Assembly (NCBI RefSeq): GCF_004010195.1
Contig: NC_057718.1
Location: 58,060,182-58,124,181 of the forward strand
Source of the DNA: Chiloscyllium plagiosum
Lineage: Eukaryota
DNA: 64,000 nucleotides
Direction: 5' to 3'
Shown here: positions 5,890-64,000 of the stretch, one piece after another
Numbering within the stretch: the stretch's first letter is position 1
Layout: each line of letters opens with the position of its first letter
The notes under the pieces: model-generated
The model's input: only the letters and a program-made list of their open reading frames with translations
Databases searched by the model: none
What the model was told of the DNA's origin: nothing
Program-made: the position numbers and the translations under genes

Positions 5890-5971
5890 TTAGAGTGGTG
5901 CTGGAAAAACACAGCAGGTCAGGCAGCATCCGAGGAGCAGGAAAATCGATGTTTCGGGCAAAAGCCCTTCT
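5890..5971 (-). mobile_element. Penelope-like pLTR fragment with partial hammerhead
   Basis: gtgctggaaaaacacagcaggtcaggcagcatcc...tcgatgtttcgggcaaaagcccttc matches the 22226 arm. The CTGA box is lost at the truncation. Confidence 0.7.
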
Positions 5972-6064
5972 TGAGGGAGCCTGTTCATTGATCCACACTT
6001 AAACTCCATTGACCTGCTTTGGTCTGGTAACTGTAATACTTTTGCCAAACCAAAACATTTTTAA

Positions 6065-9023: not shown

Positions 9024-9104
9024 TGGATTAGTGGTGCTGGAAGAGCACAGCAATTCAGGCAGCATCCGAGGACAGGCAAAATCGACGTTTCATTGTTTTT
9101 ACCT
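9024..9104 (-). mobile_element. Tiny Penelope-like fragment with 14-bp TSD
   Basis: caatagtgctttta at 9010-9023 and 9105-9118. The insert matches the pLTR end (gtgctggaagagcacagc...gcagcatccgagg...tcgacgtttc). Confidence 0.7.
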
Positions 9105-14524: not shown

Positions 14525-15210
14525 TTTATGAGAATTAGAATTACGGTTTATTGTCACATGTACTCAAGTACAGGGATACAGGAGAGCAGTGAAAAGTGTA
14601 CAATGTCGCCATTATCTAGCGCCATCTTAGGTACAAAAGTACTAGGTAGAAAATCTTAGGTATAAAGTAGGAAATAAAGAAATAAGTTAAAAAGATTAGC
14701 ATTACTGTCCTTTTTAAGTGCTTAGCCATGGGTCTGGATCCAGGCTTTTTCACCCCGACGCTGAGACATTCACCAGCATGAGTCCCGTCACTGCACCACT
14801 GCTACAGAACCATGACGCCATTCTTTGGTGTCATCTTGCCTCTACCAATGACATCAGCGCCATGAGACCATGTTGGGATGAAGTCAGCAATGCAGCCGCT
14901 GCTGAAGCTCCCTACAAAGGTAAGTAAGATTAAGTAAAAAAGCAGGGAAAAAAAAAGTAAAAGCGGACGGAGCAGATGAATCTACAATCAGCTCTGACTC
15001 AGGTCTGTGCTGGGCTTCAACTCAAGTCTGTGCTGGGCTTTGACTCAGGTCTGTGCTGGGCTTTGACTCAGGTCTGTGCTGGGCTTCCTATTGAGTCCAC
15101 ACTGGTTCAGCTCATCACCATCAATGCAGTCCAAGGATAAGAGATAAGTAGAGGAAAGGGGAAAAAAAATCATGAAAGTCAAAAAAGAAATGGATGGAGC
15201 AGATGAGCTT
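14525..15210 (-). mobile_element. Non-autonomous retroelement, possibly Rex1-related
   Basis: Shares tttattgtcac...cagtgaaaagt and A-rich...gatggag..gatgagc blocks with 53738-55411. No ORF. Confidence 0.45.
14995..15086. repeat. 23-bp tandem repeat x4
   Basis: tgactcaggtctgtgctgggctt units start at 14995, 15018, 15041 and 15064. Confidence 0.9.
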
Positions 15211-16599
15211 GGAAGTAAATGGACAATTTAAAGCACAATTATTTACTCAGTTTTCTGGGCATTTAGAGACTCCTGGGATATCCTCTGTTAGCATATAGGC
15301 TGCTGCTATTGTCTGCAGGAATAAATATCTTGAACCTTCTTCTCAGCCTCCTTTAATTTCTAACAATCAAACCAGCCAGGCTTGCTGTCAGGCACACATT
15401 AGAATGAGTCACGTGATTCCCTTAATTTTAACTTAACTGAAAGACACAGTTCTCCAGCATAGCAATCTTATAAATCTGACCATTTTCATTGTTTTTTTTG
15501 TCACCTTTTTTCCACCTTTGATTGCTGCTCCTGACCTTGTGTACTTTAATATATTTTCCTCCTGCTTGGCTTTCTTTCATTTTCTGATCTGTGGTGAATT
15601 CTGGGACGTCTTTTGGAAATGACAAAGCTTATGTGGGTGCATGTTTTTTCTTAAGAGTACAAAACGTAACAACGTAATTATACCAATTGTAACCCTCAAT
15701 ATATAAATATTTTTAAAAATATCTCCAATCCTTGTACAAGAGCATTGGGAAACTGAAGGATGCTGCTAATTCTCAGGAAAGATTGCCATTTTCAATTGGG
15801 CCACCTGAGAACACTGTGGCAGTGCATTCCTGCCTTTATAACACATTGACACGGTTTCTTTGGCAGCACAAGTGCACTTGATGTGTAAGAGGCTATCAAA
15901 TGCTGACAAATTATGGGGGATAGCTAGAACAATTGAAAATGCCTATTTTGAAAGTGCTGGAAACTAACTGTAACCAAAAAAAAGAGATGTATTAGTAAAA
16001 GATCCTCTGTAGGTGCTAAAATGAGAAGTGCTAATCTTCAGTGAATATGCATTGATGTTGATGAGCTGAGCCAGTGTGGACTCAAACAGGAAGCCCTGCA
16101 CAAACCAAAGAATCATAGGAATTACGGCACAGAACGTCACTGTCACAATGCTACTTTTTTTTCAATTGCCCACCTTCCATCAAACCAACATTTTTACATA
16201 TTTGCAAGTTTATTTATAAATGTTTCTAAAAATAATAATTTAGTCAAGACTAAAAATAAATGAATGAAGATGGAAGAGTTTTGTATGTTAATTAATCCCA
16301 GAAATAGTGCAACCTTAAATAGTTTCAAATTGATTTCTAAACTATTATATTTTATTGCTTACATATATGCTAGCTGGCTATTATTTAACACTTTTTTAAA
16401 CACTGTGTTGAATCTTGCACTTCTTTGAATGTGTTGGTTTTGTCGAGTTTCTTGGAGGGTTCCTCTATTAAACTTTCTCACGACATCTTACCAAACTCGC
16501 CTCACTAACTACTTACCCTGACCATATGGTGTTCCTCTCATCTAATTCTAGCAGCTGTCTATAACTCACTGGACCCAGAATAATACCTGGAATGGACCA

Positions 16600-18694: not shown

Positions 18695-20230
18695 CTGAGG
18701 GACAAGTGTATCACTAAAGAGAACATGCTGGGGAAGCTGAAAAATCTGAATGTGGAAAAAAAACACCATAACTAGATGGACGACACCCAGAATTCTGATT
18801 GACATTACTGAGGATATTGTGGAGGCATTGGTGGTGATCTTTCAGGAATCATTGAATTCAGGGTGGGTCCCAGAGGACTGGAAAATGACTGATATAATAA
18901 CCTTGTTTCATAAAGGAGTGAGACAGAGACAGGAAATTATAGGCTACTTAGCTTGACCCCTCAGTCTCTTTAAGTCCATTATTAAGGCTGAGATTGCAGA
19001 GTAGTTGGAAATGCATGGTAAAGTAGGGCTGAGTCAGTGTGACTTTGTCAAGGGGAGGTCATGCCTGACAAATCTGTTAGAATTCTTGAAAGAGATAATG
19101 ATTAACTTAAGCAAAGCAGAGCTGGTGGACGTAATTTATTTGGATTTCTGGAAGGCCTTTGATAAGGTGCTGTGCAGGATGCTGCTAAATAGGATAAGAG
19201 CCCATGGTGGTCAGGAAAGGCACTGGGATGGATAAAGGATTGGCTGACTGGCAGAAGGCAGATAGTGGGGATAAAGGTGTCTTCTTCAGATGGCATCCAG
19301 AGACTAATGGAGTTTTGTATGGCTCAATGCTGGGACCACAACTGTTCATGTTAAACATTAATGAACTGGGTGAAGGAACTGGAGGCATTGTTGCTAAGTT
19401 TGTAGATGACACAGGCTAGGAGATTGGGCAAAGTAACAGATGAAATACAGTGTGGGGATGTGCGAATAGAGATGTGGAAGAATAGAGATGTAGGCTATTT
19501 TCTAAATGGGAAAGAGCTTTGGAAATCTGAAGCACAAAGGGATTTAGGAGTCCAAGTTCAAGGTTCTCTTAAGGTTAGCTTGCAAGTTCAGTGGCAGTTA
19601 GAAAGGCAAATGCATGTTTGCACTGATTTTGAGAGGGCTAGAACATAGTGCAGTAATGTACTGCTGAAGCTGTATGAGGCTCTGGTGACACTGCATTTGG
19701 AATATTATGAGCAGTTTTGGGCCCATACACAAGGCAGGATGTGCTAGCCTTGGAGGGGATCCACAGGAAGTTCACAAGAATGATTCCAGGATTGAAGGGC
19801 GTGCCATATGAGGAGAGGTTGAGGACTCTACACTCGGTGGAGCTTAGAAGGATGAGGTGGGATCTGACTGAAACTTACAGAATATTGAGATGCCTTAATA
19901 GAATGGATGTGGAGAAGATGTTTCCACTAGTAGGAGAGGCTAGGACTTGAGGGCACAGCCTCAAAGTGAAGGAACGATGCTTTTGACCTGAAACGAGTAA
20001 GAATTTCTTCAGCTAGAGTGTGCTGAATTGGGGCAACACTGGTACAGGAGGCTGTTGAGGCCAAAATCATTGAATATCTTTAAGAGAAAGACTGAAAGAT
20101 CCCTGATTAGTAGGAGAATCAAAGGTTAAGGAGACAAGGCAGGAGAATGGGGTTGAGAAACATGACTGAATGGTAGAGCAGATGCAATGGGCTGAATGGC
20201 CTAATATTGCTTTTATAAGTCTTATGGTCT
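18695..20230 (+). mobile_element. CR1 LINE ORF2 (RT) remnant with 3' UTR
   Basis: GWVPEDWK; FVKGRSCLTNLLEF; VDVIYLDFWKAFDKV; GSMLGPQLF; KFVDDT; KFTRMIPG. Frameshifted. Confidence 0.88.
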
Positions 20231-20749
20231 AATGAGCAAATAAGTACCAAAATAGAACTGATTAAACTGAATAGTTGACAGAGAACAGAAATACATGAAG
20301 ACATTGTAACTCAGCAATTTATATTCCTGTCCAGGAAACAGGCTTTAGAAAAATTGGTGAGATAAAATATGGTCAATGATATTTTAAGATGCTTTCAACA
20401 AGACAGTGGAAACTCAGTTAAAGAACAAAAGTGTGCATGTAATGAATAGTACAATCATGCTGAAAATGTAAGAGGACGTCTTCTCTTTTAGTGCAAGATG
20501 GACAGGTGCACTGCTTGATTCTCCTGGGTCCTTTGCAGTTAATAGAAAATCCAAAAAAATTATTGTATGAGTCATGTTAAGGCCTGTCACCTGTTGGACT
20601 GATGTGTCCAGCATCCAACCATTACAGCTCCACCCTAGCACTACACCATACAAGTGTACCGGGAGACAGAATCTCGAGCATCTCTCCAATAGATAAACTA
20701 GTATGTGGAAAACAGATGAAAATTGTGAATTTTGTAAATTCTGAATTTA

Positions 20750-20952
20750 AATCATAGAATCCCTACAGAGTGGAAGCGGGTCATTCAGACCATCGAGTCC
20801 ACACCAATCCTCTGAAGAGCATCCCACCCAGACCTATCCCTCACACTATCCCTGTAATCCTGCATTTCCTATGACTAATCCACTTAATCCGTACATCCAT
20901 GGAATCTATGGGCAATTTAGCATGACCAATCCACCTAACCTGCACATCTTTG
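20750..20952 (-). mobile_element. HE1 SINE 3' half
   Basis: gggcaatttagcatgaccaatccacctaacctgcacatcttt core plus tail. Confidence 0.75.
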
Positions 20953-20970
20953 TACTGATTTTATGATGTA

Positions 20971-21155
20971 ATAGAGTTGAAAAATGTGGCACTGCAAAAG
21001 TACAGCGGGTCAAGCAGCATCCGAGGAGCAAGAGAATCGACATTTTGGATGTAAGCCCTTCATCAGGAATGTGAAGGGGGAAGAGAGCTGAGAGATAAAT
21101 AGGGGGCCACACCTTTTGACTCTGTCTCTCTAGCATCTGCACTCCTACCTTCTCC
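20971..21155 (-). mobile_element. Short Penelope-like pLTR fragment with decayed hammerhead and inverted tail
   Basis: Similar to the 22226 arm (gcagcatccgaggagcaagagaatcgac...gcccttcatcaggaat). Reverse complement reads CTGATGAAGGGCTTACATCCAAAATGTC. Plus-strand tail agcatctgcactcctaccttctcc. Near-TSD tttatgatgta / tttataatgta. Confidence 0.7.
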
Positions 21156-22283
21156 TTTATAATGTAGCAGCCTATGTTGTATTAGAACACAACAGAGAAC
21201 ACCAACTTGTATATTTGTAGTGCTTTTAACACAGTAAAATAAGGTGAGGAGTTTCACTAAAGTATTATAAAAGAAATTTGACACTGAGCCACCTATGAGA
21301 TACTGTAATCGATGGTTAAGTGCTTGGTACATACCCCATAAATATTCTTTTCCAGTGTCTTGGGTAGGGTGTTTAATGTCTGTCTCATGCCTGGGTCAAA
21401 GTTGAATATAGCCCCCTGCATGTCAAGAGTATATAGTTGTTTGGATATTCCTCATGAGTTGAAAAAAATAATAATTTTGTTGCACATTTGATACTGACTG
21501 GATTATATGTTTTGTCAAATTAGTACCCATACTAATGCAAATTCACACAACTGCAATGTTGTGCAAACAGCCATTTCTATCAATCATGTCTTGGTAATAG
21601 AATTGTTTTCAAACTTAAATATCCATATTGTTATGTTAATGCTCCCACTCTAGACCTGTGAATCTTGGATGCTGCACACGAGCATGTCAGGTGGCTTAAA
21701 CATTCCATGAGCTATGAGATAGCAGGACAAAACTCTCAACTGTAACGCCTTGTCCAGAGCAAATTGAGGCTATGTCATTAAGAGAACACATTGAATTAGC
21801 CAAATTATAAAGATTATATCATGTGATTTATTCACACAATTTACAGCTATCTTTAACTGGATACTTACAGGTAAAGGCATAAAACAGTCTAGTGGTGAGC
21901 CTCTGAATCAAAAACACTTTGAATCAGAATCCCTGGAAAATCACAGTTAAGGTATGGTGAATATGATGGAGAATGTAGACAATTCCAGATCTTGGTAATA
22001 CATAGAAATGGTGAGATCTCAGAACTAATAACTAGATGAAATAAATATAAATTGTGAATGGCCAACAATATCAGAGGGAATTTGATGCTGCAATTCAACA
22101 AGAGAACAAGAGAAATGGAAAATGTGCAATCTTCCTGAATGGTATTGAAATGTTTAAACATGAAGTGGAAAGAGACTTAGGATTCTCACTCCATGCTCAG
22201 TTGTGTTCAGTTTTGGGAACTAATAGTTGAAACTTTATTGCTGGAACAGCACAGCAGGTCAGGCAGCATCCAGGGAACAGGAG

Positions 22284-22319
22284 ATTCGACGTTTCGGGCA
22301 CAGGCCCTTCCTCAGGAAT
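22284..22319 (-). ncRNA. Minimal type I hammerhead ribozyme motif (mirror copy)
   Basis: Reverse complement reads ATTC-CTGAGGA-A-GGGC-ctgt-GCCC-GAAA-CGTC-GAAT. It differs from the + copy only in loop II. Confidence 0.75.
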
Positions 22320-22888
22320 GAGCAGAGAGTATTCAGCAGGAGAAGATAAAAGGTAGGGAAGAGGGACTTGGAGGAGGGGCGTTGGAAATGTGATAGGTGG
22401 AAAGAGGTCAAGGTGAGGGTGATAGGTCGGAGTAGGAGGGAGGCGGAGAGGTCAAGAAGAAGACTGCAGGACAGGAAGGCGGTGCCGGGCTGGAAGGATC
22501 CGGCTGAGACAAGGTGGGGGGAGGGGGGATGAAGAAACTGGTGAAGTCCAAGTTCATCCCCTGCGGATGGAGGGTTCCCAGTCGGAAGATAAGACGCTCA
22601 TCCTCCGACCGTCGCGTTGTTGTGGTATCTTCGACTGTGTTTATCTTCGACTGTGTTCATGCTGGTGCTGACAGTGTCTGTCACAGAATGTGTTCTTCCT
22701 GGTGCTGACAGTGTCTATCTCAGACTGTGTTCTTCCTCCTGCAGTCTTCTTCTTGTCCTCTCCGCCTCCATCCTACTCCGACCTATCACCCTCACCTTGT
22801 CCTCTTTCCACCTATCACATTTCCAACGCCCCTCCTCCAAGTCCCTCCTCCCTACCTTTTATCTTCTCCTGCTGAACACTCTCTACTC

Positions 22889-22924
22889 ATTCCTGAGGAA
22901 GGGCCTGAGCCCGAAACGTCGAAT
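22889..22924 (+). ncRNA. Minimal type I hammerhead ribozyme motif
   Basis: ATTC-CTGAGGA-A-GGGC-ctga-GCCC-GAAA-CG-TC/GAAT. Both core boxes are present, helix II is GGGC/GCCC, helix I is ATTC/GAAT, helix III is the palindromic ACGT mini-helix. Predicted cleavage after GUC at 22920. Confidence 0.75.
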
Positions 22925-23979
22925 CTCCTGTTCCCTGGATGCTGCCTGACCTGCTGTGCTGTTCCAGCAATAAAGTTTCAACTTTGATTCTCAGCATCTG
23001 CAGACCTCACTTTCTCCTTTGGGAACTAATAAACAAGTATGGCAGAGATAACACTTAGGAACATAAGAACATGAGAAATAGGAGCAGGATTAGGCCATCT
23101 GACCTGTCGAGCCTGCTCCATCGAGTCTGCTCCATCATGTATTAAGACCATGGCTAAACTTTTCGTGGACTCAGCTCCACCTACCTGCTTGCTCACCACT
23201 CACTGCTGCATAATGTATTTAGTACCTGAAAGAGTTAACTGACATCACTAAATAAATACTCGAGGTATAAATGATTATGGTTCTTTGATGCAGTGATAGC
23301 ATTCCTACCTCTAAGCCAGACCTGTTCCAGAGGTCCAACCTGTTCCAGAGGTTGAAGCGATTGATTGAAAATAACCATAAAGGGCTGTTCTTCAGAGGAG
23401 CTAGAGAATTGCAAAGGGTTCTCCTTGTACCAGTTGTGTGTTCTTAGATTGAGTCTGCTTTTCACAAGAAATAATAATGTAAGATGAAACTATCTCTTAT
23501 GTAATAAACCATTATTATTGAATGCAAACATGGCTAAGCTTCTGCGTAAGACATTATGCGGGTGACCTCCCACAATGGTACCAAGAAGTATTTGTGCTGG
23601 TGAATCTACTCCAGATGGTTCTGGCAACAGCATTCATTTCTCATATGCTAGCAACCCGTGACATTGAAGTTTACAAAACTTACTCTCAGGTTTTTGACTT
23701 ATTAGGAAAGACCAGAGCAACTTTGGCTGATATGTCTGGAAAAAGTGGGAAATCAAAGTCGCAGGCATTAAATGCTGTGCAAAATACGAATGCACAGTGC
23801 ATATTTCAGCAGTGGGACAGCAGGCAAGGGTTGATACTGTTAACAAGAAAATGTTCTGACTGCTTGTAGGGAGGTTTTTCGATCAGAAGGTCATGTGCTC
23901 GAAATGGAGTGATGGAACACTGTCATCACATGAGAAGCCGCTAGTTGCGGCAGTGGAAGAAGGATGAATTGAAATGAAG

Positions 23980-25418
<1,439 letters not shown>

Positions 25419-28400
25419 TGAATTACCTTGCGGGTTTAATGCATAGATTTCAGTGCGTTAATAGAGTGCGTTGCCTGACCACATGCAACAATAACGCATG
25501 TGTTCAATTATGACATGAAAACTTACTGATGCATGTTCGCTTGCTGTGCATCATGCCTATCTTTCACGGTACTGCCCATACCTATAAATTATTAATTGTA
25601 AAATTAGTCAGGAGACCAATTTGCAGGTCTTTTACTATGACGCTACAATTTCTGCATGAAATCAATGCATTTACATCACCATATATAAAACACAATACTT
25701 AGTTCAGAGCAAACGTATTTCACATAGAAGCTAACCTCCAAAAGAGTAGTGTATTTTGTTTGTGAAATTTCAGGAGATCCTACTTAAAATTCAGCTGCAC
25801 AGATTATTTAATGCACTGTTAATAAATTGCAACTCTTTTCTCCACCAAGAGAAATAATTTTCATTGCACGATAAATTGATGCCCTTCATGTGGCACCTTA
25901 TATCAGTCTGACAGGGTGTATATTGTGTAAATGTGTTTATGTACTCGTTAATCTGATAAAATGCATTTAAAATCTTTTCCATGTGAACATAATAGGCAAA
26001 TAGTGTACAGCTTGTCTTGAGTAGAAATATTTAAGTATGACCCTAATGGTGGGTTTTTAGGCTTTTGGTGCTGTGTATATAATTAAAGCCCATTAGGATT
26101 AAAGCCTTTGTATTGCTTTTGTAATAATGAAAGCTACTTATTAGATTAATTGCAATTAGTTTAATTGCACATGGTTTCGGAAAATAGAATTTATTCTTTG
26201 AAGTGCTTTGTGCCTATTTGCATAAAAGAATTAAGTCCCCATCGTATTGACATTTATATCTGAATTTCATATTTGAGACTTATTCACTCATACATTAAGT
26301 TATATAAAACTCTTCCCAGTTGTAAATGCTATTTCTAATCTTAAACTCAAGCTAGGGTTAGTAGTGAATTTGAAGTTAGTGGGAAAAGCCTAAAATTTTA
26401 ACAGTAGTCTTACAATCAAATTAATTTTAATGAATTTACTTGCACAGTGTTAAGGCTCGAATCAAGCTCTGTATTTCATGCTGAATGATGTACTATTTTA
26501 AAAAGATGATACCTGGGTTTCAGTGATATGCTTTTTTTCATTTTGTTAATTAATCTTAACATAAGGTATTCTAATTATCTGTAATTTTCCAGAACTTTTG
26601 TTCCTATTACAGTCATTGTTTATGTGACTATGATCTTGAGGGAAGGTATTACAAGAGCAGCAAGATCTAATTCCCAAGGTACAATAAGATGATCATGATC
26701 ACCAAGCAGTCAGAGAGATCTGAAATCAAGAATTTGGTGACTGCTGAGCTGCACTAACTGGAATCATCAAACTAATTTTTGCTTCAGTTCAATTCATGTT
26801 GGGTTCAGGGTCAAGTCATAGATTGTTGATTTAGTTCAAAATCTCTAATATTTGATACCTGAAGCAGGATCTTGAGCATTCTTAGATTTCATTTCTGCTG
26901 TTGCCTAACATTGGATTAGGTAGCAACATTGCCCTCTCATTGCCAAGATGTAGGTCAGAAGCCACCCCAAACTTCAACAGCTAAAAGCCTTCCAAGTGAA
27001 ATGGAAATAGTTTCAGTTCATTTCAACATGTGAGTCTGTCCCCAACTTAAATTAAATTTTATAATATCGACAATTTTATCATATTACTAAGCAAAGCTAC
27101 AACTGTATACTTGTCTGAGGTCAGAATTAAGGCATGTTATTGGGAGTATTATTGTAGAATCTTTACTCTATATGTATTCTGCACTGTCAGTGGTTTGTCT
27201 TGCTGCTAATTCTGTGCAATAGCAAAAACATTTTCAAATCCTAATTAAACACAAAACAATTAACTTGTTTGCTCCAGTTAAGGAAATGAATACCAAGAAT
27301 AAATCAAATCTGAAACAACCAGTGAATACAGTAATCAGAGGTAACAATAGGGAGTCTCTTTGCAATTTAAACCGGTACGTGTTTGTCCTTTATGCCCAAA
27401 TCACATGTGTCCAGGAAAAGTCACTCAGAGCTGAGTGCCATGGGAATGGGGGCAGCACTGACCATTGTTCTAAAAGCTTTGGCATGATGGATCTGACTAG
27501 TAGTACATTTATGGCAAGGCATAAATGAAAGAAGATTCACTTAAGAAGACTGAGAATTGGACACTGCAAATCAAAAAGGTCACTGGGACAGAACTGAGAC
27601 CAGAAGAAATTACAATGTAGCATCTTACAGCGCAGAAAAAGTCCATTTAGCCTATTGTATCGTTACCAGTGTTTTGAAAGAACTATTGAACAAACCCTAC
27701 ATCCCTACTTGTTCACTGTAGTTGTTCTTTTAAAAACTATTTCAGATATATCCTTCATTTTGGATAGCTGTTAAATCTGCCTTTGCATACTCTAAGGTAG
27801 TGCATTCCAGATCATCACAACCTGCAGAATAAAAACAAACTCACTGCCGGTAGTATTTAAGATATAAAAGTATGCATTTGTAGGTAGTGAAGGCTCAAAA
27901 ACTCCTTTTTAAATTATTGCAAGCCAGGCAGTTTTACCATGATGTTTACAGATCAATGCCCAAACTTTATTAGAGCACTGATCTAAATCTAGGCGTTTGT
28001 TTGCTACAAAGCCTGATACCTGCTGTGAGATTTAAACTTGGAGACAAGTACCTTTGATCAGTAGAGAAACATGGCATGGTTTTTAAATTTAATTTCAAGT
28101 TCTGATAGTGTTTTTCAAAACTTTTAAAAAAGAACATGTCTTGTGAGAATTACAAATATTGGTAAAAATATGTACCCAAAACAAAAGCAGTCATATCCAG
28201 AAATGATTCAGGAATTATACTGACTCTACCATCTCTGGTTTTACCATGGCAAGTGATGGCAAGTGTTAAAGTTTTATTGTTGTAATTTATAAAGCTGGAT
28301 ACCTGTTTCCCACTTTGACAAATTGATAAATATTATCTTTCAAATTTTAAGACTTTTGGAACCATACAGGACAACAGATATTCTTATAGAAACTGTTAAT

Positions 28401-49009: not shown

Positions 49010-50230
49010 GGCCACTCCACCCCCAATTTTTCCCTCATTGACTATTACAGTCCCAGTCTCTCCCTCATTGACTGTTTCACTCACAGTATCTCCCTCATTG
49101 ACCGCTCCACTCCCAGGCTCTCCCTCATTGATTCCTCCACTCCTAGTCTTTCCCTCATTGACCGCTCCACTCCCAGCCTCTCCCTCATTGACTGCACCAC
49201 TCCCAGTTTCTCCCTCATTGACCGCTCCACTCCCAATCTCTCTCTCAATGACTGCTCCACTCCCAGTCTCTCCCTCATTAACTCCTCCACTTCCAGTCTC
49301 TCCCTTATTGATCGCTCCACTCCTAGTCTTTCCCTCATTGACCGCTCCACTCCCAGCCTCTCCCTCATTGACCAATCCACTCCCAGTTTCTACCTTATTG
49401 ACTGCACCACTCCCAGTTTCTACCTCATTGACTGCACCACTCCCAGTTTCTACCTTATTCGCTGCTCTACTCCCAGTTTCTCCCTCATTGACCGCTCCAC
49501 TCCCAGTCTCTCTCTCATTGACTGCTCCACTCCCAGTTTCTCCCTCATTGACTGCTTCACTCACAGTATCTCCCCATTTATTGCTTCACTCCCAGTCTCT
49601 CCCTCATTAATCGCTCCACTCCCAGTCTCTCTCTCAATGACTCCTCCACTTCCAGTCTCTCCTTCATTGACTGCTTCACTCACAGTATCTCCCTCATTGA
49701 CCGCTCCACTCCCAGCCTCTCCCTCATTGCTATACTCCCAGTCTCTCCTTCATTGACTGCTCCACTCCCAGTCTCTCCCTCATTGACTGCTTCACTCCCA
49801 GTCTCTCCCTCATTGACTGCTCCACTCCCAGTCTCTCCCTCATTGACCGCTCCACTCCCAGTCTCTCCCTCACTGAGAGCTCTCCACTTCCAGTCTCTCT
49901 CTCAATGACTGCTCCACTCCCAGTTTCTCCCTCATTGACCACTTCACTTTCAGTCTCTCCCCATTTATTGCTTCACTCCCAGTCTCTCCCTCATTGACTG
50001 CTCCACTCCTAGTCTCTCTCTCAATGACTGCTCCACTCCCAGTCTCTCCCTCATTGACCGCTCCATTCCCAGTTTCTCCCTCAATGACCGCTCCACTCCC
50101 AGTCTCTTCCTCAATGACCGCTCTACTCCCACTCTGTCCCTCATTGACTGCTCCACTCCCAGTCTCTCCCTCATTGACTGCACCACTCCCAGTCTCTCCC
50201 TCATTGACTGCGTCACTCTCAGTCTCTCTC
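49010..50230. repeat. 30-bp minisatellite, about 40 diverged units
   Basis: Consensus actcccagtctctccctcattgactgctcc. Gives periodic pseudo-ORFs such as GETGSGAVNE. Confidence 0.92.
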
Positions 50231-50479
50231 TCTCGGTCTCTCTCATTGATCACTCTGCTGTCAATATTACCGTCTCTGATTACTCTACTCTCATCCTAGA
50301 CTCTATTGCTGCTCCATGTATAGCCTCAGGCTCTCTGACCTCTCTCCTCTCTACTATCTCGCTGCTCTGTTATTGGTTTCATTTCCTTTCCAGTTGCTTT
50401 GCCTGCAATAGTTTTTGAACTAATAGTCAACAATCAATGTCAACACAAATATTTTGACAAGTATCTTCGATGTATCTCC

Positions 50480-53737: not shown

Positions 53738-55411
53738 CATTTATTGTCACTTGTATTTTTTACAAAAAAAAAATCAGTGAAAAGTTTTGATACCACAGCA
53801 TAAATAAGGAAACCATTCTTAAAAACTTAAGATAAAGCCACTCCTGACTCCTGGGTTTGGGAAAAGACAGTACCGCAGCAAGACTGATGTGTCAAGCCTT
53901 TGAAATATTGGGCTGGAAGACTCTGCAGAAGCTGCCCCAAGAACCAGTTTTCTCGCAGATTCTGGGAAGGAAGACATTGCAAAAGCGACCTGAAGGATTT
54001 GGCACCACTGGATGCTGGGGCAAAACTATCTCAGCGCTGAATTTGCCGTGAACCTTTGCTGGTGCAGCAGCTGGTACTAGGTCCTTGTGCTCACCCTCCT
54101 GCCAGTTTCCTCCTTGATGATTGCAGGGTCCCACTCCGGACTCACCAACCACCTTACCGCCATCCCCCCAGTACCACCCTGGACTCACCAACCACCTTAC
54201 CGCCATCCCCCTATTACCACCCTGGACTCACCAACCACCTCACCGCCATCCCCCTATTACCACCCTGGACTCACCAACCACCTCACCGCCATCCCCCTAT
54301 TACCACCCTGGACTCACCAACCACCTCACCGCCATCCCCCTATTACCACCCTGGACTCACCAACCACCTCACCGCCATCCCCCTATTACCACCCTGGACT
54401 CACCAACCACCTCACCGCCATCCCCCTATTACCACCCTGGACTCACCAACCACCTCACCGCCATCCCCCTATTACCACCCTGGACTCACCAACCACCTCA
54501 CCGCCATCCCCCTATTACCACCCTGGACTCACCAACCACCTCACCGCCATCCCCCTATTACCACCCTGGACTCACCAACCACCTCACCGCCATCCCCCTA
54601 TTACCACCCTGGACTCACCAACCACCTCACCGCCATCCCCCTATTACCACCCTGGACTCACCAACCACCTCACCGCCATCCCCCTATTACCACCCTGGAC
54701 TCACCAACCACCTCACCGCCATCCCCCTATTACCACCCTGGACTCACCAACCACCTCACCGCCATCCCCCTATTACCACCCTGGACTCACCAACCACCTC
54801 ACCGCCATCCCCCTATTACCACCCTGGACTCACCAACCACCTCACCGCCATCCCCCTATTACCACCCTGGACTCACCAACCACCTCACCGCCATCCCCCT
54901 ATTACCACCCTGGACTCACCAACCACCTCACCGCCATCCCCCTATTACCACCCTGGACTCACCAACCACCTCACCGCCATCCCCCTATTACCACCCTGGA
55001 CTCACCAACCACCTCACCGCCATCCCCCTATTACCACCCTGGACTCACCAACCACCTCACCGCCATCCCCCTATTACCACCCTGGACTCACCAACCACCT
55101 CACCGCCATCCCCCTATTACCACCCTGGACTCACCACCTCACCCCCATCCCCCTCACCCCGGACTCACCAACCACCTCACTGCCATCCCCTAGGTCCTGC
55201 TCTGGGCTCAACAGCTGCTGCGACACTTCAGGCCCTAATGAAGCTGCCTCCGTACAGCCTTCTGACAAAGATAAACTATAAAATGGAGAAAAGATTTAAA
55301 AATTTTAAAAAAGAGAAAATATTTGAAAAGAAAGAAAAGAAAAGCCGATGGAGTGGATGAGCCCTGGCCACAGGAACCTGGAAAGTGCCTATTCCACCAC
55401 CACCATCTTAG
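53738..55411 (-). mobile_element. Non-autonomous retroelement hosting the 43-bp array
   Basis: Ends are similar to 14525-15210. Minus strand begins AAGATGGTGG and ends GACAATAAA. Confidence 0.45.
54138..55191. repeat. 43-bp minisatellite, 23 full and 2 degenerate units
   Basis: ggactcaccaaccacctcaccgccatccccctattaccaccct at an exact 43-bp period from 54138. Internal units appear identical. Confidence 0.95.
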
Positions 55412-56035: not shown

Positions 56036-57159
56036 GGTACAAGGAGTGTGTTGTAAATATTATTTACAATGTAACAGTAAATTGAACTGAAGATTTGCAA
56101 ATATCATAATTAGATTGGGCCATGCATATAAGAAATAAAGTTGAATCACAATTGTATTTAGGTCTTACATAAGCTGAGTTGTTTGACATTGAGTACAGAT
56201 CTCAACTTGCAGTGTACTGCATCTGAGAGGACTGCACTTTGAAGGACTAAGCATCTGTCATTATATTATGGTCAAATATGAAACAGTGATGTTAAAGCAC
56301 ATGGAATGCAGGAAGAGAAGGAAGGATTTGTAGATAGGAAATCTGGAAGTAAAGATTCCCCACTGATGTTTTTAAATTTTAATGGCAGTGTTCCTTATGA
56401 ATGGTCTCAACAGGCTTCACTCCCAACAGCCAGGGAGCTTCATAAGTTAGATCGCTATCAGGTTAGAAAACAGACAGGGAGCAGATGGCAGGTAATTCTA
56501 GATGGAACAGGCAGGATGGATGTTGGATACTGCTAGGGTGGGGATGCAGGCATGGAATATTCAACACTGGAGAGAGGGATCAGGTGTTGTGGGGGAACTT
56601 GTCCCCTCAGTGCCTGTTATTCAGAAAATTGAAGAACAATTCCAAAAACTCATGTAATTTCGATCATGAAGTGCCACCAATGACAATGGTATCTTCGACA
56701 GCTGATAGTAAGTTTATTGAATTCGGACATTGCATTGCATTTGCTTGGGGAGCAGCTGGTGCCTTAGCACTAGAATTTGAAACATGCCATGAAGATTGTT
56801 TCGGAAATTGCAATTACATTTAACACCACATATTGAATCTCAACTCATTCGAAAATTCTGATCCAAGAACCCTGGGACCAAACACTCCATTCAGATCTGA
56901 GAAATACATTTTCACTTCCAGGACTGCGTGTGTTAGGGATGGAAGGGATGCGAGGTTAAAATGGGAAAAATCATCAGTGTGTTGGGAAACTAGTTTCCCA
57001 TCACTCACCCACACCCTGTGAGTTTCTGTACTTGACTGCAACTTCCACAGAAGAATGTTTTTGCATGTTGTAATTGTATGGACCTCTACCATTTCCTCTG
57101 GCAGCTCCTTCCATATACTTATCACCCTCTGCATGCTAATTGCTCAATTCAAGAGACAG

Positions 57160-57945
57160 TAATGTAACGTCTGTAATTTAACAGTTGATGCATGGGTTTC
57201 CCATGCTTACTGCAACTAACCATGTGTGATTGAACAGAGGGGCCAAGGTGTGTACGTTTATAGAGTAGTTCATTGAAAGTGGTGTCACATGTAGGTAAGC
57301 TTGTGAAGAAGGCGTTTGGCAAGCTTGTCTTCATTGGTCAGAGCGTTAAGTGGAGGAGTTGAGACATCATTTTGCTGCTGTTCAGGTCTTTGGTGAAGCC
57401 ACTTTTAGAATACTGTGTAGCATTCTGGTCGCCACGCTGTAGGAAGGATGTTGTTAAACCAGAAAGAGTACAGAAAAGAATTTACAAGGATGTTGCTGGG
57501 ACTGAAGGATTTGAGTTATAAGGAGAAGCTGAATAGGCTGGGATTTTTTTCCCTGGAGTGTAGGAGGCTCAGGCATGACCTTATAACAATTTATAAAATC
57601 CTGAGCAGCATGCATAGGGGTGAATAATCAAGGACTTTTCCCCAAGGGAGGGGAGTCCAAAACTAGAGCACATAGGTTTAAAGTGAGAGGGGAAAGATAT
57701 AAAAGGGACCTAAGGGGTAGCTTTTTCACACAGAGGGTTGTGTGTGTATGGAAGGAGCTGCCAGAGGAAATGATAGAGGTGTGTACAATTGCAACATTTC
57801 AAGGCATTTTGACAGGTACATGATTGGGTAAGATTGCGAGGGATATGAGCCAAACACAGGCAATGGGACTGTTTCACTTTCAAATGCCTGGTTGGCATGG
57901 ATGAATTGGATCGAAGGATCTGTTTCTGTGCCCTATGACTCTGTG
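57160..57945 (+). mobile_element. CR1/HER1 LINE 3' fragment
   Basis: ESKTRAHRFKVRGERYKRDLRGSFFTQRVVCVWKELP. A short inverted piece lies at 57055-57135. Confidence 0.85.
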
Positions 57946-61165: not shown

Positions 61166-62439
61166 TCATTGAACCCATTTCATTCACTTATTGCTTTTGC
61201 TCTCTTAGGATTCACGAGGATTCCTCTCTTTTTCAGTGATACGGCCCATAATTTAATTCTTGTCCTTCCAATTCACAATTCTTATTCAACTTAAGGCCTG
61301 ATTTCAGTAATGCTATCAGATCTACATTATGTGTGATCAGCTCCAACTTTGTAGTGCTGTGTATATTACTCCTTGTTTTCTTTCTAGGATTTGAAACATT
61401 TCACTTTCAAATATTTTTGGGGCTGATGATATTCCAAAAGTTAGGCAATTAAAAAGCAAAACATCCCAAAAAGTGTGAAGAATGTGATTAACAGTTTTAA
61501 TTCATAGTCTAAGAGTATATTGCCAAAAACTCAGTATTCATTTCATTGTCTCAGTGGTTTTCAACCAGGCCATCTGAGTTTCACTGTCAGATTCTTCCTT
61601 TCATTGGCAGAAGTTGTATTTCCCTGTGGCCCCTTATAGCATCACATTCAAGGAGACCTCACTAATGTATGAAAATAAGATTGCATATATATTAATAACA
61701 TGGCAATCTATAATGTATCACTGATATCAGCAGTCACATGCTATTGAGTGTTTGAGAAGAGAGGATGGAATAATCTGTGCCAGAGAGTTGTATTACAGAG
61801 GTCCAAATCATGCTTGATGAGTAAATAAAAAAGTTGCTGGAACTTCCAAAAGTCAAACAGTAGTTACTCCTTGCGAAGGCAGAGTCCTAGAGGCATCATA
61901 ATAGGGGTAGAGGCAGTCTGAGCTAAGGGATCAGTCTCTCTCAGCTGTGTGGGCTAAAACCTCAAGTTCCAAATCTCATGGCAATTTAGCCATGAGGTCT
62001 AATCAACTAAGGGTTGTATTAGTAAAGGCCAATTAAAAACGAAAACAATGATGGAGTTTTAAATGTAATCATAAGTTGGATTTACAGACCAGAATCTATG
62101 AGAATAAAGTCAACAGCAAGCTTCAGGGGAGGCATTGGAAGAGTAACTGAAGTCAGAGGTGTACTGAAGCGCATGTGATGATAGCCCCAAATGAGCACCA
62201 GTTGAGTCACAGCTCCTGCCACTGCAGAAGGTCAAATGAGGGGTCAAAGTTGGGAATTGTAGAGGGAAGCAGTTGCAATGAATTAAACAGATACGTGGAA
62301 AAGCAGAAGCATGGAATTGGTATGTTCCTTGGGTCTATAACTAGTGATGTATTCATGTGGCAGAAGGGAGAGGCCACTGCAGATATCAGGATGGCAGCAC
62401 ACTCGTGCTTGAAGGAAGTTAAAACATGGAAGTGAAATA

Positions 62440-64000
62440 ATAACACCCATCAAAGAGCTAACACAGAGTGGTGTTCAGGGCTTGCCATGGTTCCCAAGCT
62501 GAATGGTGAGTTCAGGCTATGTGTACACCACAGACAATCAAATAAAGCAATCTATCTGGAATTCTACCCAGTTCATCCACCTCAGGCAGATAGGCTGGTG
62601 AAACTAGCCAATGGCAAACCCTTCACAAAGTTGGAGACTGACAGCAGTTTATGGAAAATACCCATGGACTACGAATCGAGGTTGTTAATCACCTTCACAT
62701 CTTTTGGGAGAGATTGCTTTAATTGCCTAACTTTTGGAATATCATCAGCCTCATAAATATTTCAATGTGCAATATATCAAATCCTAGGAAGAAAACAAGG
62801 AGTGATATACATGACACAATGGAGCAGGAGCTGATCACAGATAATGTAGCCCTGAAAACATTAGCATCCTGATATCTACAGTGATCTCATAAGTACGTCA
62901 TTGAAAGCAAGCTTGATATTGGAATGAGAATTGTGAATTTACAAGGAAGCTACTTAGATTTTGGGCCAGGTCTCTGAACAATCGCAATCGTAAATTTCCA
63001 CAACCAAAGACCGTCAACAAAATCCAGCAGTTTCTAGGAATGTTCAGCCACATTGTGAAATTCATGCTAAATTTGGCTATGATCACACAGTCTTTTGGGA
63101 TCAGTTGAGAAAAGGTCAACAGTGGTTTTGGAGTCCAGTGCAGATGACAACGTTTTGGAAAACAAAAGATAGCTGACTTTCTTCAGATGTGCTTGTTCAC
63201 AGTGGTGGCTGTAAATGTGTTTTCAATAGGATTAAGCACATAACTCATTTAGGTACAGGATAATAGTGTAAGAATGCCATACCACTTTACATCGAGAGTA
63301 TATTGAAATAAAACAAAATTATGTAACCACAGAGAAGGACGTTTTGGCAGTAACATGGGGTTGTGAATATTTGCCATAGATTTGATAGGATTGAAGTTTC
63401 AAACTGAGACAGATCACAAACCATTGGCTACATATTAGGTTCCAAAGAGATAGTCAAAATACTATTACATTTCCAGATGTTCAGACTTGGGTTAATGCAT
63501 TACAATTACAGCAGTCTATGGAAAAGTGAAGACTTTGACCACAGCTAACATACTTTTGAGAGCTACATTGGATCAATATGAAGCAAATGATTTAGTCCTC
63601 ATTGAGGAAGTACAAACATTTTCTTTCCGAACTTCTGAGAGGAAGTTCCAGGAAACTCAAGAAGCACAAAAAGCAGATAGAGAATGCATCTAGACCACGA
63701 AATTCTGCCCAGGAGGTCGATCAAAAATCAGTTCAGTGAACAAGCACTTACACAGATATAAGGAACAAATGAAACATTTGATCATAGTAATTTTCAAGGT
63801 TTCAATCAGAGACTTGAAGCACAAAAACCTAAGAGGGAAAAAATTGTTAGCAAAATTGTTAAGTGTAGAGCTTGTGCACAGCAGTCTGTCCAATGGCTGT
63901 AATACGTGCATCATCAATAGTTAAACACCACTAGAGTCCATATTATCTTCCAGTCTCCCAGGAAGGTCTTTATAAAGATTGGGGCAAGACACACTCGACA
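62440..64000 (+). mobile_element. Gypsy pol remnant (RT, RNase H, start of integrase)
   Basis: VPKLNGEFRLCV; TFGISSAS; IQQFLGMF; TEKDVLAVTWGCE; TDHKPL. Heavily disrupted. Confidence 0.75.

Follow-up and report, generated by a model that had tools for sequence, protein, structure and literature searches.

The locus

The DNA analysed here, called the window throughout, is a 64-kb stretch of the Chiloscyllium plagiosum genome. Between positions 22212 and 23031 it carries what is almost certainly an insertion, dead on arrival, of a Neptune-type Penelope-like retrotransposon that bears an endonuclease. The features of the insertion and its nearest gene are as follows.

22212..22225 (+): left copy of the target site duplication (TSD), 14 bp, identical to 23018-23031 and found as a single copy in a related-species contig
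22226..22626 (-): left half, a 5'-truncated Penelope-like copy of 401 nt whose tail-less 3' end abuts the left TSD; complementary to the right arm over 22226-22471
22284..22319 (-): putative minimal type I hammerhead motif, left copy, with C3 at 22315 and C17 at 22288 (descriptor scan)
22411..22626 (-): remnant of a reading frame, the GIY-YIG endonuclease C-terminus of a likely Neptune-type ORF; conserved part 22513-22626 (translation)
22627..22736 (no strand): 110-bp filler, a 16-bp duplicated piece followed by about 2.6 diverged 37-bp units (Tandem Repeats Finder)
22737..22983 (+): right arm, a 5'-truncated copy of the element end (pLTR region), with 7 differences from the left arm
22889..22924 (+): putative minimal type I hammerhead motif, right copy, with C3 at 22893 and C17 at 22920 (descriptor scan and folds)
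22984..23017 (+): one-sided tail of 34 nt, the distal 3' end of the family, left unpaired by the repeat finder
23018..23031 (+): right TSD copy, 14 bp (repeat finder, related-species contig)
24399..25352 (+): first coding stretch of CCDC85A, in a CpG island 1.37 kb downstream; context, not part of the element (Pfam PF10226)

Insertion anatomy

The repeat finder returned two inverted arms (22225-22471 and 22737-22983) of 247 nt each, 97% complementary, which form the sole inverted repeat of such length and identity among the 15 pairs listed for the window. They differ at exactly seven positions and so are about 2.8% apart. A preliminary description of the locus, made from its sequence, had counted about seven mismatches over 247 bp, and it had also given the perfect 14-bp TSD and a 34-bp unpaired tail; these values hold. 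The TSD is the direct repeat 22212-22225 = 23018-23031, found once in the related species, and the tail, present at the right end only, measures 34-35 nt (22983/4-23017). Since the left TSD ends with base 22225, the first base of the left arm, the element itself begins at 22226. The arms are separated by 265 nt, foreign filler included, and the target surroundings are 63% AT.

The right half consists of 281 copied nt, tail included, and stands head to head with the left half; the element 3' ends point outward in both halves and each is joined to target DNA. The truncation point of the left half is given by contigs of the family, which match to 22626 and then go on differently. On the right, 42 RNA reads of the family cease to match the stretch beyond 23018, where they continue in dissimilar sequence.

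For endonuclease-bearing (EN+) Penelope insertions, the relevant passages of Craig et al. (2021, PMC8557442) and Arkhipova et al. (2013, PMC3846280) describe an inverted 5'-truncated copy and a one-sided tail. The insertion has 5'-truncated copies with an adjacent inverted copy, a one-sided tail (34-35 nt) within the 30-40 bp typical of the group, and a TSD whose empty site is single-copy in the related-species contig.

Three details of the arms may be added. A canonical poly(A) hexamer lies near the outer end of each, at 22969-22974 (+) and 22239-22234 (-). Most copies of the family part from the window copy at exactly 22969/22239, so the hexamer marks a subfamily. The arm difference at 22408/22800 places a stop codon in the endonuclease frame of the left copy, with a sense codon in the right copy.

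Element family

The minus-strand peptide read from 22626 matches the C-terminus of shark proteins that contain reverse transcriptase (RT) and GIY-YIG (tblastn, 67% over 36 aa, E 4e-10). Its nearest proteins are P0131 (whale shark) and P0132 (zebra shark), reached from the peptide through short relatives and then P0126; identity is 63-67% over the last 35-36 conserved residues, and in tblastn searches of the window with both proteins this stretch gave the only matches. The GIY-YIG-like C-terminal peptide first noticed on the minus strand is thereby confirmed, and the identification of a young Penelope-like element with an inverted end copy is supported, the anatomy and the empty site in the related species also speaking for it. 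When longer proteins were sought with the 46-aa peptide itself, neither of 2 candidates passed. Ten proteins matched the peptide: four short ones and P0125 (GIY-YIG) were kept, and five (P0121, P0122, P0123, P0129 and P0130) were dropped as unrelated repetitive proteins.

P0131 and P0132 carry Pfam matches to RVT_1 and GIY-YIG; the window peptide alone has no Pfam match. It is in these two proteins that the ORF of a Penelope-type RT with a C-terminal GIY-YIG is found, and the window holds its endonuclease end only. The architecture of P0131 is RT, Cys-rich linker and GIY-YIG domain, and the window fragment stops short of the linker. A Zn-finger linker is the mark of the Neptune and Nematis clades in the clade descriptions of PMC8557442, and the portion of a recent survey that covers vertebrates (10.64898/2026.07.22.740005) found only Neptune and Poseidon there; the element is therefore likely of Neptune type, as assigned through its relatives. 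It resembles Neptune-clade elements in its identity to the nearest proteins and differs from them in having neither RT nor linker. In P0132 the reading frame continues at its C-terminus into a hammerhead-like coding stretch.

Contig depth on the family arms is about 3.4 million, as against 17.5 on the flank; this difference of some five orders is not a copy number but shows that the family is very abundant in this genome. Metagenome and prokaryote collections, scanned by pattern for copies of the family, gave 0 loci. In the window the element end is also found in three shorter and older copies, at 5899-5976, 9035-9091 and 20992-21071 (78-85% identical), none of which passes the hammerhead descriptor.

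Hammerhead motifs

A descriptor for the minimal type I hammerhead matched twice in the 64 kb, both strands included, and never in 20 shuffles. One match lies in each arm (2/2), in agreement with the earlier claim of an intact hammerhead per arm with a predicted cut at 22920, the position of C17 in the right motif. This motif has a 4-bp helix I, the core, an extra A before helix II, a 4-bp helix II and a loop-less palindromic helix III; cleavage is predicted at 22920/22921. The combination of core, helices I and II, extra nucleotide at 9/10.1 and palindromic helix III by which such motifs are recognized is thus found. The Rfam search suggested as a check gave no hammerhead match (E<=1 over 20000-26000; E<=10 over 22860-22960), and the putative hammerheads are called from the motif rather than from Rfam. 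The sole Rfam match was a snoRNA (E 4), taken as chance.

Any transcript, of either strand, contains one sense hammerhead. Since helix III is a loop-less 4-nt palindrome, a second molecule would be needed for cleavage. The whole-element fold has an energy of -614.8 kcal/mol, and within it the pair probability of helices I and II is 0.000 on either strand, so the preliminary picture of one ribozyme per transcript masked by a hairpin is reproduced in the fold model. Even in a 76-nt fragment the pair probability of helix I is <0.07, and the dimeric hammerhead fold (-13.5 kcal/mol) is much less stable than the best co-fold (-28.2 kcal/mol). Dimer cleavage was reportedly addressed by Lunse et al. 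in 2017. In the sections of Cervera and de la Pena (2014, PMC4209133) on minimal hammerheads, cleavage is absent for monomers and low for dimers, and the anole ribozyme cleaves only with its protein (PMC11167929). The 4-bp helix I, the extra A before helix II and the loop-less palindromic helix III seen in each window motif are among the traits that PMC4209133 ascribes to minimal Penelope hammerheads. The hammerheads are most likely silent at this locus.

The mirror-image arrangement of the two ribozymes, noted at the outset, does exist but is an automatic result of the inverted duplication; opposite-strand pairs 100-700 bp apart are already described in the 2014 text (PMC4209133). The hammerheads shown in the same portions of that paper include helices II of 7-8 bp in Schistosoma families, as compared with 4 bp here, and the window motif differs from them in having G at core position 7. 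A non-LTR retrozyme, as defined in the corresponding passage of 10.64898/2026.07.22.740005, has at least two consecutive tandem units with a complete hammerhead in each; this class was ruled out, the two motifs here being on opposite strands and not in tandem.

Filled and empty sites

Of the 24 runs listed, four were aligned to the interval 21500-24300; they include the same species (organism A) and a related species (organism B). In the related species the site is empty. One contig of 1116 nt places letters 902-1116 on 21989-22211 and letters 32-901 on 23018-23884, with the 14-mer once and the element absent. Over the two contigs counted, the related-species flanks show 59 differences from the window in 1559 letters (3.8%).

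Two same-species runs bear on the insertion. In S2 the left junction is filled: a contig of 1138 nt contains the left flank and 24 nt of element, a reach short of the 31-letter bridging rule, in a sample other than the one in which the stretch is best represented. In S3 a contig of 219 nt follows the left flank to 22210, one base before the break in the related species, and departs with its remaining 71 letters. The predicted length of an empty allele that extends to 23087 is exactly 219 nt, and in the S3 run repeat contigs join at 23058, which is where a 31-mer contig of the empty allele should break. From this length, the second piece of the contig not being among the pieces listed, S3 very probably carries the empty allele. 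Across the six listed flank pieces, S3 and the window disagree at 2 of 1583 letters (about 0.1%). The insertion is real and recent, and it is probably polymorphic within the species.

Could the inverted structure be an artefact of assembly? Among the contig pieces listed, none crosses the interior or the right junction, and the interior is known from the assembly itself. The TSD is nevertheless perfect and its empty site is single-copy in the related species, the left junction recurs 24 nt into the element in the S2 contig, the arms are non-identical and the tail is of canonical length. We consider an artefact very improbable.

Divergence of the arms

If S3 carries the empty allele, the upper 95% bound on its flank divergence allows 1.1 arm mismatches to arise after insertion, and the probability of seven or more is 1.7e-4. 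Four of the seven mismatches are transversions. Each arm has six CpG sites, all intact in both arms, and none of the seven mismatches touches one, although avoidance of CpG is by itself a weak test (P 0.06-0.20). Because the arms differ by 2.8% and the filled and apparently empty haplotypes by about 0.1%, most arm mismatches are probably older than the insertion. The count of about seven given in the preliminary description stands as a count but is probably no measure of age, most of the differences seeming to predate the event.

Mismatches that predate the insertion favour dual-nick priming on two templates over fold-back of one cDNA. We take dual-nick priming to be the best explanation of the locus, with a probability of roughly 0.55. 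One point against it is that seven mismatches need no second template if the insertion is fixed and old, since a fixed insertion dating from soon after the split from the related species is expected to have 9.3. All seven also fall within the inner 172 nt of the arms, a clustering that gene conversion of one arm could have caused instead.

The published model for head-to-head Penelope structures is one of fold-back or self-priming on a single template (Arkhipova et al. 2013, PMC3846280). In the passages that set it out it is drawn from palindromes at inverted junctions, and it makes the arms identical at birth. Applied here, the inverted half would come from the first cDNA or from antisense RNA, and the seven differences would be later, through mutation or through gene conversion from other family copies. 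The mismatch count fits an insertion soon after the species split, and in a family as extremely abundant as this one conversion donors are plentiful. Working against the model are the probable empty allele on a near-identical haplotype, the lack of CpG decay in either arm, and a junction with no palindrome in which 265 nt, including foreign filler, part the arms. As a joint account, one template followed by later change is possible but doubtful.

The junction filler

At the inner junction there is a filler in place of a palindrome. Its first two 37-bp units differ at 7 of 37 positions. It begins with a perfect 16-bp duplication and contains small internal hairpins as well. No source was found within the 64-kb window, where the best alignment score was 29, compared with 23-40 in 25 shuffles; local capture was rejected, as 91 of 100 shuffles reached or exceeded the best score within about 5 kb. 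A resemblance of 13/14 to the element near 22590, seen by eye, was set aside as within chance. All three contig sets give a depth over 22628-22721 that lies well beyond single copy (14116, 2859 and 524). Depth on the filler is higher in organism A than in organism B, and spill-over from neighbouring family contigs may contribute.

These properties bring in another way to obtain diverged arms: an older fold-back elsewhere, already containing the filler and the diverged arms, could have been transcribed and re-inserted here as a whole. This would explain the diverged arms, the diverged filler units and the young insertion together, and the parts of PMC3846280 on pLTRs report capture of sequence and its movement between them. 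The depth over 22628-22721 is as it would predict, though spill-over may account for it. The copied unit would, however, need to stop precisely at the tail-less end, 34 nt short of the distal end, and bring no donor flank with it, and the polymerase would have to traverse a 247-bp hairpin (-615 kcal/mol). Re-insertion of an existing unit is accordingly an improbable origin.

Proposed mechanism

Under dual-nick priming on two templates the steps would run as follows. The GIY-YIG endonuclease would nick both target strands, 14 bp apart, and each nick would prime reverse transcription on an element RNA. On the right, synthesis would begin at the distal start and copy 281 nt, including the tail; on the left it would begin at the proximal start and copy 401 nt with no tail. 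The two templates, about 2.8% apart, would be separate members of the family or pLTRs that differ. The truncated cDNAs would then be joined head to head, with 110 bp of minisatellite-like sequence captured between them, and the TSD would result from gap filling. The hammerheads would be part of the copied end, passengers at this locus, single on each strand and buried in the hairpin.

The outward 3' ends, each joined to target, fit the prediction of priming at both nicks. Purified Poseidon protein of the anole, a predicted dimer, cuts and extends both strands and uses two adjacent RT starts between which the tail lies (Frangieh et al. 2024, PMC11167929); this in vitro support is from another clade than the window element. 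We give even odds to the broader proposal in which a dimeric enzyme, using both nicks and two RNA templates, generates the inverted repeats of Penelope elements, with the present arms already 2.8% apart at insertion, which would exclude fold-back of a single cDNA here.

Comparison with known systems

The element is ordinary in kind: the layout of an inverted copy with a tail and the pairs of opposite-strand hammerheads are already published. Its likeness to the insertions treated in the examined passages of PMC8557442 and PMC3846280 includes head-to-head copies, a tail of 30-40 bp, a TSD around the whole unit, a hammerhead in the terminal repeat and, in some cases, unrelated sequence captured between terminal repeats. 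It differs in that copying was confined to the last 281 and 401 nt, in a TSD of 14 bp compared with 8-10 bp in the rotifer examples of those passages, and in a minisatellite-like filler where the inverted junctions presented in PMC3846280 have a palindrome. What the present analysis adds is that the arms appear to be older than the insertion. They apparently come from two templates, a topic absent from the passages of PMC8557442 and PMC3846280 concerned. A search of the openly available literature by title and start of abstract gave no account in which Penelope inversions arise from two templates, although such a negative is only weak evidence.

The anole Poseidon element (PMC11167929) is similar in its two RT starts bounding the tail, its cutting and extension of both target strands and its AT-rich target; it belongs to another clade, and the paper contains neither inverted insertions nor a test for two templates. 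The likeness extends to L1 only in part. Twin priming of L1 also uses both nicks to prime cDNA and leaves an inverted, truncated insertion within a TSD. There a single RNA supplies two pieces that do not overlap, whereas here both halves copy the same 247 nt.

Self-priming was proposed for Penelope inverted ends in 2013 and cleavage with extension of two strands was obtained in vitro in 2024, and the present insertion is a test case between them. The comparison of arm divergence with insertion age can be run genome-wide. If the two-template account is true, polymorphic insertions in this shark would decide between self-priming and dual priming, through arm differences set against allele age at thousands of loci.

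The CCDC85A promoter

The preliminary description had rightly placed the insertion beside CCDC85A, about 1 kb from a CpG island: the gene has a PF10226 match, its protein is 100% identical over 318 aa to one named from Chiloscyllium punctatum, and CpG-rich DNA begins near 23800-24000. A probably polymorphic hairpin of 250 bp at 1 kb from a CpG-island promoter permits a test of allele-specific expression; no effect is suggested. Cruciform extrusion in duplex DNA is unlikely with a spacer of 265 nt.

It had further been proposed that transcripts diverging from the promoter pass through the element, and that the resulting dsRNA, edited RNA or ribozyme-cut ends have consequences for CCDC85A. The island is near, the hairpin is very stable, and the first canonical poly(A) hexamer on the minus strand below 24100 is that of the left arm, at 22239. 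The insertion is nevertheless missing from the related species, and probably from a conspecific too, and hence does not belong to a conserved promoter. The link to CCDC85A, dsRNA, editing and a cruciform find no support here. Nor do the self-cleaved ends, as judged from the models: each transcript has a single sense motif that would need a second molecule, its stems are at 0.000 in the full fold, and the dimer fold is unfavoured. Minimal hammerheads are besides weak cleavers or need the protein of the element, according to the parts of PMC4209133 that report cleavage and to PMC11167929. A regulatory role of this kind is thus highly improbable.

A scan with bacterial promoter and terminator models, of no relevance to a shark, gave nothing, and no RNA data set was listed as containing the stretch. 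In RNA run X21, for which about 2/100 of the reads were taken, 861 family reads aligned, 816 of them only partly. None fell on the filler or the unique flanks and no ends piled up; the CpG island also had none, hence there is no positive control, and X21 speaks neither for nor against expression, cleavage or editing.

Other repeats in the window

A second, unrelated high-copy repeat occupies 23045-23190, starting 14 bp right of the TSD; within it 23107-23136 is a 14-bp tandem duplication that the related species lacks. Two minisatellites lie in the gene region, at 49015-50232 (30-bp unit, 41 copies, 83% matches) and at 54131-55190 (43-bp unit, 25 copies, 97% matches), the latter very homogeneous. 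Older inverted pairs are found at 61308-62863 (146-nt arms, 84%, 1264 nt between) and at 57054-57808 (78-nt arms, 81%, 599 nt between). A small DNA transposon could have its ends at 15091-15128 and 16048-16085, which form a 38-nt inverted repeat (95%) with a spacing of 919 nt; a 23-bp tandem array (14996-15087) lies next to it.
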